Of a stretch of 32,000 nt of DNA, positions 2,701 to 22,102 are shown one piece after another. The translations under genes were made by a program, and so were the position numbers. Origin of the DNA: Gemmata obscuriglobus (GTDB lineage Bacteria; Planctomycetota; Planctomycetia; Gemmatales; Gemmataceae); the NCBI RefSeq assembly GCF_008065095.1, contig NZ_CP042911.1, forward strand, positions 930,001-962,000. The letters run 5' to 3'. The first letter of the stretch is position 1; each line of letters begins with the position of its first letter. The notes under the pieces were generated by a model. It saw only the letters and a list, made by a program, of their open reading frames with translations, was not told the origin of the DNA and searched no databases.

Positions 2701-3278
2701 GGCTTCACCTCCCGGACGGGTGCATCGGGCACGAGCGGGGCGGCCGACGCGGTGCCGGTCACCGGCACCGGCGCGGCGGGCGCCACCAGCTTCGCGGCCG
2801 CGACCTTCGGGTCGAGTTCCTTTTCGGGCGCCAGGTCCAGCACGGCGCCCGACCCGGTCGGGAGCGGCGCCCGCGCGGCCTTCGGCGCGCCGAGCGCCGC
2901 GGTCCGCGCCTCGTACACCGCCTTCGCCTGCCGCTCCAACTCGTCCGCCTGCCGCATGAGTTCGTCGTCGTTCTTGTCGAACGCGGTCTGGCGGATCTTC
3001 AGGCACACCTCCATCCGCCGCAGCAGCGCGTCGGTCTCGGCCTGCACGGCGGCCCGCACCACGTCGGGCGCGAGCGTGGCCGTGCCCGGCGCCCGGGCCG
3101 GCGTCACCGGCCCGCTGCGGACCGTCGGCCCGGCCGGCTTCGGCCCGCTCACGAACAGCTTCTTGTACCACGGCCGCGCGTCGGCCGGCGGCCCGGAATC
3201 GGCCGCGCTGACCGGCGCCGCGGCGCCCGCCACGCCCCCGAGCGCGACGGCAACCACCCAGGCCCGAAATCGGCTCAT
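2697..3278 (-). CDS. Secreted coiled-coil-like hypothetical protein (193 aa)
   Basis: Track ORF 2697..3290. I prefer the ATG at 3278, which has a G-rich SD (ggggggaacc) just upstream; the alternative start is 3290. Signal-peptide-like MSRFRAWVVAVALGGVAGAAAPVSAAD. The charged helical middle reads ETDALLRRMEVCLKIRQTAFDKNDDELMRQADELERQAKAVYEA. Translationally coupled to the downstream lipoprotein. Confidence 0.6.
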   Translation of the reverse strand: MSRFRAWVVAVALGGVAGAAAPVSAADSGPPADARPWYKKLFVSGPKPAGPTVRSGPVTPARAPGTATLAPDVVRAAVQAETDALLRRMEVCLKIRQTAFDKNDDELMRQADELERQAKAVYEARTAALGAPKAARAPLPTGSGAVLDLAPEKELDPKVAAAKLVAPAAPVPVTGTASAAPLVPDAPVREVKP

Positions 3279-3589
3279 GGTTCCCCCCATGACTCGGCCG
3301 CCGGCGAGCCGGCGCCGAGCGCCGCGACCGCCGCGCGTCCCCCTTTAGTCGGCGCGGCCCCCGCGGGTCGTATGTGCTGTTAAGTGAGCTGCGTATGCCA
3401 GCGGGAACCGGGCGTGTAAAGCCCGACTCAGAGCGGCGTGTGATTGGCACCACCGGGCGGGAGGCCGGCGGCCTTCCCGGGTGGCGGGTGCCTTGGCGCG
3501 TGCATACAGAAACCTGTGAGCAACGACGGGGGCGCCCGTTTCGTTCCCACACGCCCCACGTTCTCCACAACCCGCGGGCGAGACCGGTT

Positions 3590-4606
3590 ATGGTGTTTGC
3601 GGATCCACCCTCGGCCGCACTGCAGCAGGCGCTACAGTTGCTCGCGGAGGGCAAGAGCGAGGACGCCGAGACGGCGGTAAAGAAGGCCGCGCAGTCGGCG
3701 AAGGCGAAGCACGGGTCCGGGTCGCCGCCGCTCGCCGCCGCCTACGCCGACATCGCCCAGCTGCACCTGAAGATGGGTCAGTACGGGAAGGCCGCGGTCG
3801 AGTTCCAGCACGCGTGCAAGGCGCCGCTCCCGGCCGACCCCGCGGGCCGGCAGGCGCGGCTCGGGTTCATGTTCGGGTTCGCCGAGGCCCTGGTCGCGCT
3901 GGGCCGGTTCGAGGAGGCCGAGAAGGTCCACCGGCAGTGCGGCGCGTTCGCGCGGAACCTGTTCGGCGCGAACGCGCCGCGGGCCGTCGCGACCAACGTC
4001 CCGCTGGCCGACGGGCTCTTGAAGGCGGGCAAGGCGGACGAGGCGCTCGCCGCCGCTCAGGAGGCTTACGACGCGCTCTGGCACCTCGGCGACGCGCTCA
4101 TCGCGTTCGCGGTCCCGGTGCGGGCCGAAGCGCTGAAGGCCGCGGGCCGGGCCGACAACCCGTTCGCCGACCTCGCCGACCTGCCCGACGAGTTGACCCA
4201 CCAAGCCGTTGCCGGGGTGCTGACGCGGGCCGGGAGCGGCGACCCGGTTCACGTTCGCGCGGTGCTGGCCGACCTGCTCGCGTTCGCGGACCAGAAGTAC
4301 GGCGACGGCCACGCCGTCATGTGCGACGTGCTGGCCGCCGTCGCGCACCACGAGGCCCGGCAGGGCGACCGCGCCGACGCGACCGTCCGCCGGGCTGCCG
4401 TGCGCCGGTCCGTGTGGGCGTTCGTGGTGCGCCGGCTCCCGGGCGGGCTGCTGGCGAACCTGGAGATCGGGTTCGAGCCGAACGGCACGATCCACCTCGT
4501 GCCGCACGTGTCCCGCGAGCCCAGCGTTCGCGAGGCCGAGCAGCTCGAAGCCGTTCTGACCGAGGCCGTCGACGACCTGTACTCGCGCCCCGCGCTGCCG
4601 GCGTAG
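3590..4606 (+). CDS. TPR-like helical-repeat protein (338 aa)
   Basis: In-frame ATG at 3590 within track ORF 3374..4606; the upstream part has non-protein-like composition. Helical repeat segments include AAAYADIAQLHLKMGQYGKAAVEFQHAC and FAEALVALGRFEEAEKVHRQC. No specific family recognised. Confidence 0.55.
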   Translation: MVFADPPSAALQQALQLLAEGKSEDAETAVKKAAQSAKAKHGSGSPPLAAAYADIAQLHLKMGQYGKAAVEFQHACKAPLPADPAGRQARLGFMFGFAEALVALGRFEEAEKVHRQCGAFARNLFGANAPRAVATNVPLADGLLKAGKADEALAAAQEAYDALWHLGDALIAFAVPVRAEALKAAGRADNPFADLADLPDELTHQAVAGVLTRAGSGDPVHVRAVLADLLAFADQKYGDGHAVMCDVLAAVAHHEARQGDRADATVRRAAVRRSVWAFVVRRLPGGLLANLEIGFEPNGTIHLVPHVSREPSVREAEQLEAVLTEAVDDLYSRPALPA

Positions 4607-4653
4607 CGGCCGGTAGCAACCGCTCCAAGAACGCTGCCTTCACCGAGGTGCCC

Positions 4654-6279
4654 ATGCGACCGGTTCTTTCCTTCGCGGCGGTCCTCGGCCTCGCGGCGCT
4701 CGCGGGCGCGCAAGACCCCAAGGCGCCGGCCCCGCGGCGGCTCCTGTTCATCCAGGCGAGCGGGTACCTGTACGTGAACCCGCTCGCCGCTCCGCCGGAC
4801 GGGGCCGGTCCGCCGCGCGCCGCCGAGCAGTTCGCTGCGGCCCTCCGTGTTCCCGTCGCAAAGGGCAACAACCAGCTCTTCGTCCTGACCGACACGTCCG
4901 CCGCCAGCCCGCACCCGACCCGGGCCGCTGTCGTGAGCGTACTCGACAGCTTCTGCGCCACGACGCGCGAACAGGACCGCGCCGTGATCGTTTTCAGTGG
5001 CCACGCCATCGAACGGGCCGGCGGCGCGTTCTTCGTCCCGCTCGACGGCGACCCGGACGCGCCGGCGACGCTCGTCACGGTCGCGGACGTGTACGCCCGG
5101 CTTGACAAGCTCAAGGCGGCGCAGAAGGTCGTGATCTGGGACGTGTGCCGGCACAACCCGGACCGGGTGCGCGGGCGCCGCGACGGCGGGCCGATGTCCG
5201 AGGGCCTGTTCAAGGCGCTGACGGCGGTGCCGCCGGGCGTTCAGGTGTTGGTGAGCTGTTCGCCGGGCGAGCGCGGACTGGAGTACGTTCCAACCAGGCT
5301 GCAAACGGGTAGCGCGTACCTCGACGCGCTGCGTCTGACGGCCGCGGACGAGTTCGCGCGACTCGGCGCGGCCGACCTCATCCCGGTGGACGCCTGGAAC
5401 CAGGGCGCCGCAAAGACGCTCGTGGCTGCGGCGGTGGCGACGGGGTTGCGCGGCGCGAAGCAAACGCCGGTCGCGGTCGGGGCCGCGCCCAAAGCGCCGG
5501 CGCCGTTCGACCCGAAGGCGGCACCGGCCCGGCGGTTCGACCTGCCCGAGCCGCCGAAGGCGCCGGCGGCCGACGTGAAAGCGGTGCTCGACGAACTCGC
5601 GCTGCCGCCGCTGTTCGAGGCCGACCGGTCGCAGGTGGGTGCGGTCCCGTTCGCCCCGGACGCGCTGAAGGGCGCCGCGCCGGACGTGTCGGTTGAAGAG
5701 GTGCTCAAGGCCGCCGAGAAGTACCCGTTGCGGGCGGCGGTGCTTCGCTCGCTCCAGGCGGTGCGCGAGGTGTGGCCGCGGGGTGGGAAGGAAGCGAAGG
5801 GCGTGACCCCGCTCGCCGCCCCGGTCGCGGAGCGGACCAAGAAGGCGATCAGCGACGCCCAACAGCTGCTGGCCGAGGCGGTGCTGAGGTTGGAGGCCGA
5901 ACTGGAGGCGCTCCGAGCGGTAGAGGGGCACCGGGCGAAGGAGACGCGGCGGTGGCAGGCCCACTACGACCTCACCCTGGCGGAGGTGCGGCTGCGGCTG
6001 GTGGTGCTGAACGAGTACAACCTGCTGCTGGCGCGGGTGCGAACGGAGACGCTGCCGGACCTGCCCCCCGGCGCGCCGGGGTGGCGGCTGACCGCCGGCG
6101 ACAAGCTCACGTCGCGCAAGGAGATGAAGGACCTGTTGGCGGCGGCACAGGAAGGGTTCGAGAAGGTGGCGGCCGACCACAAGGGGACGCCGTGGGAGGT
6201 GCTCGCGCGGCGGTCGCGGGCCACCGTGCCCGGGCTGCGCTGGGAACCGCTCCCGGCCCCGAAGACAACGGATCAGTAA
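4654..6279 (+). CDS. Exported caspase-like (peptidase C14-like) domain protein with long helical C-terminal region (541 aa)
   Basis: ATG at 4654 within track ORF 3814..6279; the upstream 280 codons are Arg/Gly/Pro junk. Signal peptide MRPVLSFAAVLGLAALAGAQD. The caspase-family layout is RRLLFIQASGY, then AVIVFSGHA (His codon 5002-5004), then FFVPLDGD, then KVVIWDVCRHNP (Cys codon 5146-5148), then VLVSCSPGERGLEY. This resembles the bacterial orthocaspase pattern (FSGHG ... DACRNNP ... ATxPG). Recognised from memory of the family, not from a search. Confidence 0.6.
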   Translation: MRPVLSFAAVLGLAALAGAQDPKAPAPRRLLFIQASGYLYVNPLAAPPDGAGPPRAAEQFAAALRVPVAKGNNQLFVLTDTSAASPHPTRAAVVSVLDSFCATTREQDRAVIVFSGHAIERAGGAFFVPLDGDPDAPATLVTVADVYARLDKLKAAQKVVIWDVCRHNPDRVRGRRDGGPMSEGLFKALTAVPPGVQVLVSCSPGERGLEYVPTRLQTGSAYLDALRLTAADEFARLGAADLIPVDAWNQGAAKTLVAAAVATGLRGAKQTPVAVGAAPKAPAPFDPKAAPARRFDLPEPPKAPAADVKAVLDELALPPLFEADRSQVGAVPFAPDALKGAAPDVSVEEVLKAAEKYPLRAAVLRSLQAVREVWPRGGKEAKGVTPLAAPVAERTKKAISDAQQLLAEAVLRLEAELEALRAVEGHRAKETRRWQAHYDLTLAEVRLRLVVLNEYNLLLARVRTETLPDLPPGAPGWRLTAGDKLTSRKEMKDLLAAAQEGFEKVAADHKGTPWEVLARRSRATVPGLRWEPLPAPKTTDQ

Positions 6280-6309
6280 ACGCTGTCGCCGGAAGGTAAG
6301 GAGCGGGGT

Positions 6310-6789
6310 ATGAACCCGGCGTGGCGCACGGGTACGGTGGCGGCGCTGTGCCGTCGGATGCTGGACACCCGCGAGTTCGACGCGCTGCCGATCCTCGCGG
6401 ACGCGCTCCAGGACGCCGGGTGTACGGACCCGGAAATACTCACCTCGTGCCAGGACGGGACGCTGAGCCGGGCGCGGGCCGAGCGGTTGGTGAACCTGAT
6501 GTACTCGGACGAGACCGCCGCCGCGGTGCGCTGGCTCGAGCAGTTCGTCCGCGACATCGATCACTGCGACGCCGAGGGCAATCCGGCCGACACCTACGAG
6601 AGCGCCGTCGAGATCGGCCGTACCGGGCTCGATCAGGGGCACATCACGTTCGTGTCCATCGAAGGCGCTCACTTCTTTTGGCAGAGCGACAACAACCGGC
6701 GGGCCTTCTTCCGCAACTGGTCGCTCGTCACCGGCGTGGCGGTCCCGGACGACCAGCAGGCGCGCATCACGTTCAGTTGCACCTGCTGA
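6310..6789 (+). CDS. Short-form paralog A: N-terminal PILADALQDAGC module + variable region + FFRNWSLVTGV box, ends SCTC (159 aa)
   Basis: Track ORF 6310..6789, with aaggag 8 nt upstream of the ATG. Nt 6355-6558 match 7283-7486 with one mismatch. Confidence 0.75.
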   Translation: MNPAWRTGTVAALCRRMLDTREFDALPILADALQDAGCTDPEILTSCQDGTLSRARAERLVNLMYSDETAAAVRWLEQFVRDIDHCDAEGNPADTYESAVEIGRTGLDQGHITFVSIEGAHFFWQSDNNRRAFFRNWSLVTGVAVPDDQQARITFSCTC

Positions 6790-6899
6790 TCGCGCAGTCG
6801 TTCCTGGCTCGCGCGGGCCGGCCGCGCACATTGCGACAGGCTCGCGGCTCAGGTAACCTACTCACCACACCACGAGCGCCCGGACCCGCGGAGGGACGC

Positions 6900-7241
6900 A
6901 TGACTTTGCCGATCGGCAGACTGATCGACGGCGACGAGGGCCGCGATGCGGTCCACGTTGCCATCGCGCCCACGACGGCCCCGTGCGAGTTGCAGCCGGG
7001 CCAGCACGTCGACCCGCGCGGGCACCCGGAAGGACCGGGCGTCGTGCCGGTGGGGATCGTTGACCCGTTCCTGCGCGAACCGGTCCCCGCCGGCCGGCGG
7101 TTCTGGCTGTTCCTGTACCCCAACACCGTAACCACCCTGCGGCACGAGTGGTCGCACCCGGCGTACCCTACCAACTCCCCCGCCGAAGTGAACCAGGCGA
7201 TTCAGGACTATCTCACCCAGAGAAAGAGGGCCCAGGCATGA
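6900..7241 (+). CDS. Conserved-looking small hypothetical protein (113 aa)
   Basis: In-frame ATG at 6900 of track ORF 6321..7241, with ggaggga upstream. MTLPIGRLIDGDEGRDAVHVAIAPTTAPCELQPGQHV...GIVDPFLREPVPAGRRFWLFLYPNTVTTLRHEWSHPAY. The stop overlaps the next start as ATGA (7238-7241). Confidence 0.6.
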   Translation: MTLPIGRLIDGDEGRDAVHVAIAPTTAPCELQPGQHVDPRGHPEGPGVVPVGIVDPFLREPVPAGRRFWLFLYPNTVTTLRHEWSHPAYPTNSPAEVNQAIQDYLTQRKRAQA

Positions 7242-7747
7242 ACCCGGAGTGGCGGACCGGGACGGTGCTGGCGCTGTGCCGGCGGATGCTGGACACCCGC
7301 GAGTTCGACGCGCTGCCGATCCTCGCGGACGCGCTCCAGGACGCCGGGTGTACGGACCCGGAAATACTCACCTCGTGCCAGGACGGGACGCTGAGCCGGG
7401 CGCGGGCCGAGCGGTTGGTGAACCTGATGTACTCGGACGAGACCGCCGCTGCGGTGCGCTGGCTCGAGCAGTTCGTCCGCGACATCAACTACAACGACTA
7501 CAAGGACGAGAACGACGAGGTCGGTACGCCGAGCGACACCAACCCGCACACCTACGAGTACGCCATTGAGGCCGGGCGGAGCGGCCTCGAAGAGGGGGAC
7601 ATGTACTTCGGCTCCGACGCCGGGGCCGACTTCTTCCTGGAGAGCGACGACAACATGCGGACGTTCTTCCGCAACTGGTCGCTCGTCACCGGCGTCCCGG
7701 TTTCGGACGAGGACCAGGGCGACATTGATGTCCGTTGCGGCTGCTGA
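7238..7747 (+). CDS. Short-form paralog B: same N-terminal module, acidic variable region, FFRNWSLVTGV box, ends RCGC (169 aa)
   Basis: ATG at 7238 inside track ORF 7148..7747. MNPEWRTGTVLALCRRMLDTREFDALPILADALQDAGCTDPEILTSCQDG... 4-nt ATGA overlap with the upstream gene. Confidence 0.75.
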   Translation: MNPEWRTGTVLALCRRMLDTREFDALPILADALQDAGCTDPEILTSCQDGTLSRARAERLVNLMYSDETAAAVRWLEQFVRDINYNDYKDENDEVGTPSDTNPHTYEYAIEAGRSGLEEGDMYFGSDAGADFFLESDDNMRTFFRNWSLVTGVPVSDEDQGDIDVRCGC

Positions 7748-7769
7748 TGGTTTTGGTGTTGAGTGTGGT

Positions 7770-7857
7770 CCGCTCGCTCCGCGAGCGGTCACGAAGCCGC
7801 GCGTCGTAACACCCAAAGCCGTCCGACGCTCGGAGCACCGCTCGCTCCGCGAGCGGG
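7770..7857. repeat. Two copies of an 8-bp-stem hairpin core (ccgctcgc tcc gcgagcgg), REP-like; possible bidirectional terminators
   Basis: The same 19-nt palindromic core occurs at 7770-7788 and 7839-7857, between convergent genes ending at 7747 (+) and 7906 (-). Confidence 0.45.
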
Positions 7858-7905
7858 CCACCCTGAAGACCCGGACCGCACAACCGGAATCAACTCCGTT
7901 CGGCG

Positions 7906-8592
7906 TCACTTGGCCGGCGCCACGTCGGCGGTCTGCGCCGCGCTCCACTGCTCCACGTTGCCGATCGGGAACCAGTAGTCCGCCGCGACCACGTGGAAGC
8001 CCCCGGCCGCCGCGAGCTGGCTCACCGCGTCCGTGATCTCGTACTCGCCCCGCGGCGAGAGCGGCAGCGTCAGGTCGAAGACGCGGCGCGGGAACACGTA
8101 GCCGCCGATGTTCGCCAACTGCGGCGGGGTCAGGCCCTCGGGCTTCTCTTCGATGTGGTGCAGCGTGCCGTCCGGGTTGCGGAACAGAATCCCGTAGTCC
8201 TTCGGGGTGCCCACCGGGTGCGCGAGAATGCCCATCGGCACCTGCGCGAGGTGCGCCAGGTCGGCGCGGCCGATGAGGTCGTCCCCGTTGAGGACCATCA
8301 CCCGGTCCGATTGCACCGCCCCCTTGCAGCTCATGAGGGCGTCGCCGGTGCCGCGGGGCTCGGTCTGCCGGACGGTCGCCCAGTTCTTCACGTGCGGCTG
8401 CCGCGCGAGGTACTCCTCGATCTGCTCGCCCAGGTAGTTGACGACCACCACCAGCCGGTCGACGGGCGGCAGCGCGCCGATGATCCAGTCGAGGATGGGG
8501 CGGCCCTGGACGGGCAGCAGGGGCTTGGGAACCGTCTCGGTGTGCGGGCGCAGGCGCGTGCCTTTTCCGGCGGCGAGGATGATGGCGTCCAA
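7906..8592 (-). CDS. Sugar-phosphate nucleotidyltransferase (NTP_transferase family)
   Basis: Track ORF with a TTG start. (M)DAIILAAGKGTRLRPHTETVPKPLLPV is the classic GxGTRL nucleotidyltransferase motif, followed by ...EPRGTGDAL...VLNGDD.... Confidence 0.85.
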   Translation of the reverse strand: MDAIILAAGKGTRLRPHTETVPKPLLPVQGRPILDWIIGALPPVDRLVVVVNYLGEQIEEYLARQPHVKNWATVRQTEPRGTGDALMSCKGAVQSDRVMVLNGDDLIGRADLAHLAQVPMGILAHPVGTPKDYGILFRNPDGTLHHIEEKPEGLTPPQLANIGGYVFPRRVFDLTLPLSPRGEYEITDAVSQLAAAGGFHVVAADYWFPIGNVEQWSAAQTADVAPAK

Positions 8593-8939
8593 GCGGTTCG
8601 GTGCCTCCGAGGTCGAGATGCCGGGCGTCTGGGCGGCGCGTCCGCTTCCCCCGACACAGCTAGTCTAGGCGGGCGGAGGTGAGAAACCGCGCGGTTCGGC
8701 GGAAACGAGTGAACCCGGGCAACGCGGCGCGTCGATACGATTGGCGTCGGGTGCGGTGACGGCGGAGTCCGACGCCCACCCGGCCGCCAGTGGTTCGCGC
8801 ACGGAAGCGGGCTGTTGGTGCGTTCACCCTCCCGTGCTGCCGTCGGGTCTGAGCGCCGGGCGACCGGCGCCCACCCCGACGGCGGCCGTGGGGCGGACAA
8901 CTCTTCGCAAATAAACACGCCTACGGACGGGCCGATCCC

Positions 8940-9134
8940 ATGCGCCGATATCTCGCGCAACTGTCTGTTATTACCGCCCTGGCGGCCGGGCTCGGCTGCC
9001 AGCACGTCGGGGGCAAGTGCGACTGCGGGTACAGCCCGAGCGACTACCCGATCATGGCCCCGACCAACCCGCACGCCTCGGCCCCGGTCGTCGCGCCGGC
9101 CAAGCCCGCCGCGCCGAAGACCGGCAACGAGTGA
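8940..9134 (+). CDS. Small lipoprotein (64 aa)
   Basis: MRRYLAQLSVITALAAGLGCQH has a lipobox. G/C-ending codons dominate after the first few codons. A strong hairpin follows. Confidence 0.5.
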   Translation: MRRYLAQLSVITALAAGLGCQHVGGKCDCGYSPSDYPIMAPTNPHASAPVVAPAKPAAPKTGNE

Positions 9135-13341: not shown

Positions 13342-13368
13342 CGTGAAACCGTGTCCGAGGAACGCGAG

Positions 13369-14016
13369 ATGACGGAGGCGGAGTGGCTCGCCGCAACCGA
13401 CCCGACGCCGATGCTGGAGTTCCTTCGGGGCACAGCCAGCGCCCGGCAGTTGCGGCTGTTCGGCTGTGCGGCGGTCCGCGCCGTTTGGTCTCAGTTGGCT
13501 GAAGAGCTTCCGAATGCAGTGGCGGTTGCCGAGGAATATGCCGATGGGACGGTTTCAAAAGCCGCCTTGCGAAGGGCGAGGCACATCCTGCGGGACAAAA
13601 GAGACGAACTGGAGGCGGCGGGCCTGAATGAAAGCCCGCGTTGGAACATTTACTGGCTCGCTGAGACGGTTGCCACGATCAACGCTTATGATTCTGTCGT
13701 TGCCGAACTGGATCGACTCGGCTCAGACTCGCCGCAACTGGTGGCGCCCGACTGGCCGGTGCTTAGCGATCGCTTCCGCGACGTCTTCGGCAATCCCTTT
13801 CGCTCTATCGCGGTAGCCCGGGAATGGCTCACCTCGGACGTTCGCGCCCTGGCCGAAGGCATTTACGCCGAGAGAGCCTTTGACGGCCTCCCGATTCTTG
13901 CAGATGCACTTCAAGAAGCCGGCTGCGACAGTGAGGACCTTTTGAACCACCTGCGCGGCGAAGGGCCGCACGTACGGGGCTGCTGGGCGCTGGATCTGGT
14001 GTTGGGTAAATCGTAG
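13369..14016 (+). CDS. Long-form paralog 1: C-terminal PILADALQEAGC module, ends DLVLGKS (215 aa)
   Basis: ATG at 13369; the track starts at the GTG at 13351. MTEAEWLAATDPTPMLEFLRG...FGNPFRSIAVAREWLTSDVRALAEGIYAERAFDGLPILADALQEAGCDSEDLLNHLRGEGPHVRGCWALDLVLGKS. It visibly uses more A/T-ending codons than its neighbours. Confidence 0.8.
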   Translation: MTEAEWLAATDPTPMLEFLRGTASARQLRLFGCAAVRAVWSQLAEELPNAVAVAEEYADGTVSKAALRRARHILRDKRDELEAAGLNESPRWNIYWLAETVATINAYDSVVAELDRLGSDSPQLVAPDWPVLSDRFRDVFGNPFRSIAVAREWLTSDVRALAEGIYAERAFDGLPILADALQEAGCDSEDLLNHLRGEGPHVRGCWALDLVLGKS

Positions 14017-21415: not shown

Positions 21416-22102
21416 GTGAGGCCCGATATGTTCGATGCCGCCATCGAAAGGGGCACACGCGAGTTGTGGTGGCGTCACGAAACCCACCCCCGCGACCTGC
21501 TAGAGTTCCTTGAAAATCGCTGCCAAGGCCGGAAGTGGCGCCTCTTCATGTGTGCGTGCGGGCGCCGCTGTTTGGACCAAATGCCCAGCGCGGTATTTCG
21601 AAACGCCGTTGCCACGAGTGAAGCTTACGCAGACGGCTTCGCGTCCACTGAAACGATGTCGGCCCTCGCCCACGACGCGAGCCGTGAGCTACAGCGATAC
21701 TACGATCAAACAAAGCCGCATTGTGCGGGTAGCGTTGCCATTGAGGCGGCATCCCTGGGAGGTGCTTATCTCTTCGAATGCACGGTGCGTCTGATCGACT
21801 TCGCAGCTTGTATTACGGAGAACGAGGCTCTTGAAAATGCGGTCCAAGCGCAACTCGTCCGCGACATTTTCGGCAATCCATTCCAGCCCGTGGTGTTCCA
21901 CTCAGAGTGGCTGACCTCTACGGTTCGCGCACTCGCGCACGGGATGTACGAGTCTCGCGACTTCAGCGCGATGCCGATCCTCGCCGATGCACTGCAAGAC
22001 GCGAGATGCGAGGACGGTGCCATCCTCGACCACTGCCGCGACCCGCACGGCGTCCACGTCTGCGGGTGCTGGGTGGTTGACCTCGTACTCGGCAAGTCGT
22101 GA
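21416..22102 (+). CDS. Long-form paralog 2: C-terminal PILADALQDARC module, ends DLVLGKS (228 aa)
   Basis: Track ORF with a GTG start at 21416; the ATG at 21428 is also possible. ...FGNPFQPVVFHSEWLTSTVRALAHGMYESRDFSAMPILADALQDARCEDGAILDHCRDPHGVHVCGCWVVDLVLGKS. G+C is lower than the flanks. Confidence 0.8.
   Translation: MRPDMFDAAIERGTRELWWRHETHPRDLLEFLENRCQGRKWRLFMCACGRRCLDQMPSAVFRNAVATSEAYADGFASTETMSALAHDASRELQRYYDQTKPHCAGSVAIEAASLGGAYLFECTVRLIDFAACITENEALENAVQAQLVRDIFGNPFQPVVFHSEWLTSTVRALAHGMYESRDFSAMPILADALQDARCEDGAILDHCRDPHGVHVCGCWVVDLVLGKS

Follow-up and report, generated by a model that had tools for sequence, protein, structure and literature searches.

Short-tract ectopic gene conversion very probably explains why two tandem genes of the planctomycete Gemmata obscuriglobus share an almost identical 5′ segment. 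These genes, here called A and B, lie with a third gene, M, in the order A-M-B in a window of 32,000 nucleotides (nt) (contig NZ_CP042911.1, positions 930,001 to 962,000, numbered here from the first letter of this stretch), and all three are annotated as hypothetical proteins. A and B are tandem paralogs in direct orientation, 928 bp apart. As judged from alignments with the sister species Gemmata algarum, the tract itself, its timing relative to speciation and, for its right part, the direction of transfer are established; RecA-type recombination as the mechanism, and one event in place of two, are what we infer beyond this.

A nucleotide mosaic between two paralogs

Copy A was aligned to copy B at an offset of 928 nt. 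Their homology spans 6307-6790 in A and 7235-7748 in B, that is, from 3 nt 5′ of each ATG to 1 nt past each stop codon. Seven mismatches occur in the first 45 nt (positions 6320, 6327, 6330, 6333, 6340, 6341 and 6354), which Nei-Gojobori counting divides into four synonymous and three non-synonymous differences. The next 204 nt (6355-6558 against 7283-7486) hold one mismatch only, C at 6522 against T at 7450. Further 3′, copy B (169 amino acids (aa) versus 159 for A) has ten extra codons that fall within the acidic stretch NYNDYKDENDEVGTPSDTNPH, and exact identity returns over 32 nt (6706-6737 = 7664-7695), which could not be extended in either direction. A sequence-only reading of the window had described the offset, the seven 5′ mismatches with four synonymous changes, the near-identical tract, the longer acidic middle of B and the 32-nt block, and all of them were reproduced by alignment and codon counting. 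It had also described the flanking non-coding DNA as unrelated; the flanks are indeed unrelated, but what precedes B is coding DNA, namely the 3′ end of gene M.

That an assembly or consensus artefact collapsed two repeats, the circumstance in which the sequence-only reading would have withdrawn its observation, has next to no probability. Nothing speaks for it beyond the general risk that repeats carry, and A and B keep distinct flanks, distinct 5′ ends and an internal mismatch. Collapse is excluded because window 3200-9111 (5,912 nt) is matched at 100% identity by an independent draft contig (ABGO01000400) from the same strain and because the A, M and B proteins are each on record from four contigs, under four protein accessions each, including the draft contig and two contigs of more than 1 Mb.

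Comparison with Gemmata algarum

G. algarum strains JC673 and JC717 carry a syntenic A-M-B locus in the same neighbourhood, with about 94% nucleotide identity to the window; their copy B orthologs are 87-89% identical to that of G. obscuriglobus. Polarisation of the changes rests on a six-sequence Gemmata alignment of the A and B copies of G. obscuriglobus and of these two strains. Over the 204-nt tract, A and B of G. obscuriglobus differ at 1 site, whereas A differs from JC673 A at 12, B from JC673 B at 19, and the two JC673 copies from each other at 21. Synonymous divergence (dS) over the same codons (16-83) was 0.020 for the G. obscuriglobus pair, versus 0.357 for the JC673 pair, 0.160 for the A orthologs and 0.250 for the B orthologs, a collapse that protein-level selection does not explain (0.020 versus 0.357 and 0.16-0.25). 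From codon 84 to the end, A/B dS was 0.55-0.62 in both species and ortholog dS 0.085-0.14. In the tract, paralogs of one genome are thus closer to each other than to their orthologs, while outside it the phylogeny follows orthology. Partitioned neighbour-joining trees were incongruent in the same sense: the N-terminal part paired A and B of G. obscuriglobus as sisters, and the C-terminal part placed the A copies of G. obscuriglobus and JC673 apart from a group formed by G. obscuriglobus B, JC717 B and the sequence P0002. Since A/B dS in the 3′ half is 4-6 times ortholog dS, the duplication predates the species split and is, by this measure, several times older.

Permutation tests pointed the same way. 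In a Sawyer-type permutation, the longest concordant run between A and B of G. obscuriglobus covered 28 of 115 polymorphic sites (p < 5e-5), versus runs of only 4-6 sites in the G. algarum A/B pairs. The maximum chi-square segment was 6342-6558, with 2 differences in 217 nt, a value reached in 0 of 300 shuffles. Synonymous differences in the tract numbered 1 of 51 for the G. obscuriglobus pair and 15 of 53 for the G. algarum pair (Fisher test, p = 2e-4). The GENECONV-type and breakpoint tests suggested by the sequence-only reading were therefore significant on the Gemmata copies at hand, and its proposal of recent gene conversion, as opposed to uniform decay after duplication, agrees with the ortholog comparison, the dS collapse and the permutations alike.

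Extent and direction of the conversion

The left edge of the tract lies between the mismatch at 6354 and the first informative site at 6367, and the right edge between 6501 and 6522. B of G. obscuriglobus and B of JC673 both have T at 7450, perhaps an ancestral B base that was kept and shows where the tract ends on its 3′ side; this is ambiguous given that JC717 B has C. Beyond it, 6523-6558 is invariant in six of six Gemmata sequences and so carries no information on tract extent. Judged by these informative sites, the tract measures a minimum of 135 nt (6367-6501 = 7295-7429) and a maximum of 167 nt, or 204 nt if the mismatch is a later mutation. The coordinates and the single mismatch that had been given for a 204-nt tract thus hold, but the segment that was converted may be shorter. 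Its 3′ end adjoins the length-variable linker, where homology stops.

The direction can be read from an 11-site signature specific to B in G. algarum (alignment columns 123-178), which encodes PEVLAQ...A51 versus PE(L/I)LTS...T51. B of G. obscuriglobus has the A-type base at each of the 11 sites (7360-7415) that set G. algarum B apart from all A copies. Substitutions specific to G. obscuriglobus at columns 58, 60, 87, 127 and 190 are common to its A and B. Outgroup B-type proteins from metagenomes read 'LLAQCQ', like G. algarum B, and 'TS' is specific to A; therefore the transfer over this part ran from A to B.

On this basis, we propose the following sequence of events. A and B are old paralogs, arranged in tandem in direct orientation with a spacing of 928 bp, and a mosaic at the protein level was already present in them: the N-terminal 83 residues would have been held by strong purifying selection family-wide, and the C-terminal half of A would have diverged fast after the duplication and then become fixed. 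Once the G. obscuriglobus lineage had separated from G. algarum, homologous recombination, presumably of the RecA type and probably in a single event, would have led to non-reciprocal conversion of a short 5′ segment, with A as donor and B as recipient over 7360-7415 and with either direction possible for the left third (6355-6426). The length-variable linker would have acted as a natural barrier to heteroduplex extension at the 3′ limit. Conversion would in this way have layered nucleotide identity over the older protein-level mosaic.

Several points weigh against this account. At 6399, 6402 and 6408, A and B of G. obscuriglobus both match G. algarum B and not G. algarum A. Either three clustered synonymous changes arose in G. 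algarum A, two of which produced rare A/T-ending codons, or the left part was transferred from B to A, by a second event or by patchy repair. The mismatch 6522/7450 may mark the edge of the tract or have arisen later by mutation, 6523-6558 is uninformative, and the polarisation comes from one sister species with two strains. No third donor copy was seen in the window or by protein search, which were not complemented by a whole-genome nucleotide scan. The other genes compared that bear the N-terminal module of A and B (described below) reach no more than 79% identity over about 110 nt and hence cannot be donors.

Alternative explanations

Could the tract be kept identical without recombination, through constraint at the nucleotide level or through purifying selection combined with a strong GC-rich codon bias? 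The N-terminal 83 residues are highly conserved family-wide, a GC-rich genome narrows codon choice, and the invariance of 6523-6558 in all six Gemmata sequences fits such constraint. The sequence-only reading had itself conceded that a near-identical tract in every family member would favour it. However, G. algarum A and B differ at 21 of these 204 nt (dS 0.357), orthologs differ at 12-19 sites, distant orthologs vary freely at synonymous sites throughout, and no Rfam family matches the window, which makes this explanation extremely unlikely. We consider equally improbable a very recent duplication followed by extremely fast divergence of one 3′ half. The C-terminal half of A is indeed highly divergent (non-synonymous divergence, dN, 0.32-0.34) and restricted to one lineage, but A and B are both present in G. 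algarum with orthologous 3′ halves, which excludes it; in addition, 3′-half A/B dS reaches 0.55-0.62, 4-6 times ortholog dS, and seven differences, four of them synonymous, have accumulated in the first 45 nt.

The sequence-only reading had alternatively suggested a cassette-like exchange with diversification of the middle region. A programmed system of this kind (antigenic variation, or a diversity-generating system), in which a constant module guides swaps of a hypervariable middle, would suit a tandem pair from a phage-associated family in which a conserved segment flanks a variable acidic one. In Neisseria (pilE/pilS) and Borrelia (vlsE), a single expression site frequently receives variable segments from silent cassettes. 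The A/B conversion resembles these systems in its short tract between paralogs and in drawing its homology from conserved segments, but it was the constant segment that was copied, and both A and B look like ordinary genes, with start codons and Shine-Dalgarno-like sequences. Conservation between species extends to the middle and 3′ parts: segment-wise comparison of G. obscuriglobus and G. algarum gave 98.7% amino-acid identity and a dN of 0.006 for the C-terminal half of A, and about 85% and 0.067 for that of B, with a dN of 0.005 between JC673 B and JC717 B over the variable and C-terminal segment. The variable segment is hence stable and not diversifying. Only two full-length copies and no silent cassettes were seen, and no reverse transcriptase or recombinase domain occurs among the called neighbours within about 5 kb. 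Programmed exchange is accordingly very unlikely. The same holds for a donor from another cell, the A of a related strain having recombined into the resident B; sequence alone cannot separate a near-identical donor strain from intragenomic conversion, but the tract is an exact match to the resident A, lineage-specific substitutions included, and an intrachromosomal donor 928 bp away is simpler.

Gene conversion between A and B thus belongs with a known class of events. Interlocus gene conversion and concerted evolution of bacterial paralogs have been described, for example for tufA/tufB (survey in PMC6053082, Commun Biol 2018). A and B share with that type the non-reciprocal homogenisation, the greater closeness of paralogs of one genome than of orthologs, and the way of detection, by phylogenetic incongruence and loss of synonymous divergence. 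Unlike genes in whole-gene concerted evolution, A and B were homogenised only over a 5′ tract of 135-204 nt, and their 3′ halves have clearly diverged; and in place of a long-lasting process, the tandem A/B pair, with its spacing of 928 bp, offers firm evidence for one recent event and hints of recurrence only. A literature search returned no paper on the A-M-B locus or on gene conversion in Gemmata.

Other features of the Gemmata algarum copies

A and B of JC673 do not differ over their first 30 nt (locus L002, 3071-3100 versus 4001-4030). Codon 4 of JC673 B is the A-type GCG (Ala), where other B copies have GAG (Glu), and the JC673 A/B permutation gave p = 0.007, which hints at a separate small 5′ conversion in this strain. 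In JC717, copy A (locus L082, 4073-4666) has a 2-nt deletion in a GCGCGC run near its 3′ end; the resulting frameshift yields a product of 197 aa that has lost the conserved C-terminal CxC, and it also bears C14G at a nearly invariant cysteine. JC673 A is intact. The JC717 copy may be decaying, or the draft assembly may be in error. The C-terminal half of B (window 7487-7744 versus L002 4250-4507) evolves faster in protein than that of A (dN/dS about 0.47 versus 0.07), although B is the widespread ancestral form; these ratios come from small counts, with 13 non-synonymous and 7 synonymous changes.

Gene family and phage relatives

No significant match to A, B, M or the other module-bearing open reading frames (ORFs) was found in Pfam, NCBIfam or PADLOC, PDB sequence searches with both profiles returned chance-level matches only, and Rfam gave nothing in the window. 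M matches the N-terminal half of the phage family phrog_11912 (positions 17-118, E 2.4e-24). A and B match this family directly only at E 0.05-0.14; residues 66-169 align with the C-terminal half of fused homologs, including a terminal CxC, with an hhalign probability of 99.1% (E 1.2e-18). Many M homologs of 170-195 aa are in fact fusions that continue into a helical domain ending in ...FSCSC. The fused form was found in 66 phage records, mostly of large lytic phages, and was noted in jumbo and N4-like phages; examples are gp057 of Erwinia phage S6, whose gene lies between those for a dUTPase and for a helicase and DNA polymerase, and hypothetical proteins of Achromobacter phage Motura and Sinorhizobium phage phiM12. 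Together, M and the C-terminal half of A/B are homologous to the two halves of one phage protein, with the terminal CxC kept.

The Gemmataceae form departs from the phage form in two respects. Fused phrog_11912 proteins are single chains of a beta-barrel and a helical domain, whereas in Gemmataceae each half has its own gene, M or B, with translation of the two coupled; and a further N-terminal module of about 65 residues precedes the second half. At least four further neighbourhoods contain M and a B-like gene that overlap by 4 nt, each with only one B-like gene, and the split pair, together with the N-terminal module, is also found on two IMG/VR viral contigs (L087 and L092), with M directly 5′. 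The loci bearing on the split pair and its viral relatives are window 6900-7747, phage records H1-H20 and viral loci L087, L088 and L092. Because the halves are fused in phages and M and B are translationally coupled, we infer that M binds B; it probably binds A as well, and A and B are probably alternative partners of M. In a search of 5.8 billion proteins, the 120 matches listed included the A-type C-terminal half from no species other than G. obscuriglobus and G. algarum. M has the conserved motifs RDAVHV, GIVDP and RHxWxHP, and A and B have the terminal CxC; the conserved D/H residues of M and this CxC suggest, being compatible with it, a shared metal site.

The first ~65 residues of A and B form a module with the pattern WRT..V..L...R.F..LPILADALQDAGC, which is unnamed in curated libraries. 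A scan of genome contigs was dominated by this module: at least 551 stretches were confirmed, mostly in genomes of Gemmataceae and other planctomycetes, with two full-length loci among the matches listed. Two other ORFs of the window, of 221 and 228 aa (13351-14016 and 21416-22102, both on the + strand), carry the same module, over about 45-60 aa, but at their C-terminus, with the pattern W.T..V..LA..Y..R.F..(L/M)PILADALQ(D/E)A.C... followed by H.(R/C)GCW..DLVLGKS. On one viral contig (L086, IMG/VR contig 3300036853_000241, 40.7 kb), the ORF directly after the B-like gene (5462-5968) contains 'FADWLEEHGDKRA', which may be akin to the Gemmata 'repeat-companion' motif (TIGR02996-like); this would suggest that planctomycete viruses carry several small host-typical modules.

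Predicted structure of B and the variable middle

B was modelled with AlphaFold2 from an alignment of 75 sequences (mean predicted local distance difference test score (pLDDT) 91.6, predicted template modelling score (pTM) 0.87); the model shows a single compact globule, mostly alpha-helical. Residues 84-105, which hold the acidic insert, are its only low-confidence segment (pLDDT 66-79 versus >89 elsewhere), have no secondary structure and vary in length across the whole family. In the model, the variable middle thus behaves as a tolerant predicted surface loop and not as a diversified cassette. A Foldseek search of the PDB with the confident B model gave a best E of 3.8. With a model of the fused protein, fold searches against PDB and BFVD returned weak similarities to beta-tulip, DUF2190 and head-decoration proteins at E 0.005 or worse, which were not used for function; the exception was one true homolog of unknown function.

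The 32-nt block encodes FFRNWSLVTGV, and FFRNWSLVTG is the most conserved motif of the family, with invariant F143, W147, S148, L149, T151 and G152. As it is this motif and is also identical in the G. algarum copies, the block cannot be assigned to a recent event. A second recent conversion was considered and rejected, the block being equally identical in G. algarum; the probability of chance identity was about 0.03, a rough estimate uncorrected for the choice of block. On sequence grounds the block would be either an older small conversion or chance.

The locus and its neighbourhood

The features of the A-M-B locus are collected in Table 1. Shine-Dalgarno-like sequences precede all three genes, with an AAGGAG motif 8 nt 5′ of the copy A ATG, and the stop codon of M overlaps the ATG of B (ATGA, a 4-nt overlap). 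No relic of M was found upstream of A by tblastn.

Table 1. Genes and segments of the A-M-B locus (window coordinates)
Feature	Position	Strand	Remarks
Copy A	6310..6789	+	GobsT_07990, WP_010050073.1, 159 aa; ORF with translation; lineage-restricted paralog; donor over the right part of the tract at least
Near-identical tract in A (maximum extent)	6355..6558	+	one mismatch in 204 nt; dS 0.020; informative sites bound 6367-6501
Variable linker of A	6559..6594	+	residues 84-95; alignment gaps; equivalent to the low-confidence loop in the B model
32-nt block in A	6706..6737	+	encodes FFRNWSLVTGV; identical over 29 nt in both G. algarum copies
Gene M	6900..7241	+	GobsT_08000, 113 aa; between A and B; predicted beta-barrel half of a phage-type protein
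Copy B	7238..7747	+	GobsT_08010, WP_010050078.1, 169 aa; widespread form of the family; conversion recipient over the same part
Near-identical tract in B (maximum extent)	7283..7486	+	minimum converted segment 7295-7429; A-type donor markers 7360-7415
Variable acidic linker of B	7487..7552	+	residues 84-105; low pLDDT, no secondary structure; length varies across the family
32-nt block in B	7664..7695	+	synonymous sites vary in distant orthologs

Directly upstream of A lies a conserved gene of 541 aa (window ~4650-6279, + strand), with a signal-peptide-like N-terminus and syntenic in both species; its G. algarum ortholog has a weak caspase-like (Peptidase_C14) match. On the other side, between the convergent genes B (+) and an NTP-transferase gene (-), window 7755-7871 contains a 35-nt inverted repeat that holds the near-palindrome CCGCTCGCTCCGCGAGCGG twice, exactly (19-mers at 7770-7788 and 7838-7856). 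The region 7745-7905 folds at -81.3 kcal/mol (z = -4.8). The same 19-mer is also present twice in both G. algarum loci, with the second copy flipped. This element may be a bidirectional terminator or a repetitive extragenic palindromic (REP)-like element.

Implications

The mechanism is a known one, ordinary bacterial gene conversion, and no new mechanism is revealed; what is new is the instance, in an uncharacterised phage-related gene family. It provides a clean, well-bounded natural case of short-tract conversion in a planctomycete, in which donor, recipient and relative timing can be read from a sister species. In practice, trees or ortholog calls made from the 5′ half of this family will mislead.

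A broader reading, which we put forward as rather unlikely, is that A-M-B is a domesticated split phage protein: one beta-barrel subunit, M, would pair with helical A or B, whose diverged C-terminal halves would differ in specificity, while recurrent short-tract conversion would keep the shared N-terminal module identical for the common partner. Three hints prompt it, namely the possible 5′ conversion in JC673 (p = 0.007), the fusion of the two halves in phages and the translational coupling of M and B. If true, the identity of the tract would reflect selectively maintained partial concerted evolution and not a single neutral accident. The uncharacterised M and B pair, which is conserved across Gemmataceae, represents in split form a protein common among large lytic phages, and it offers a handle on that phage family.

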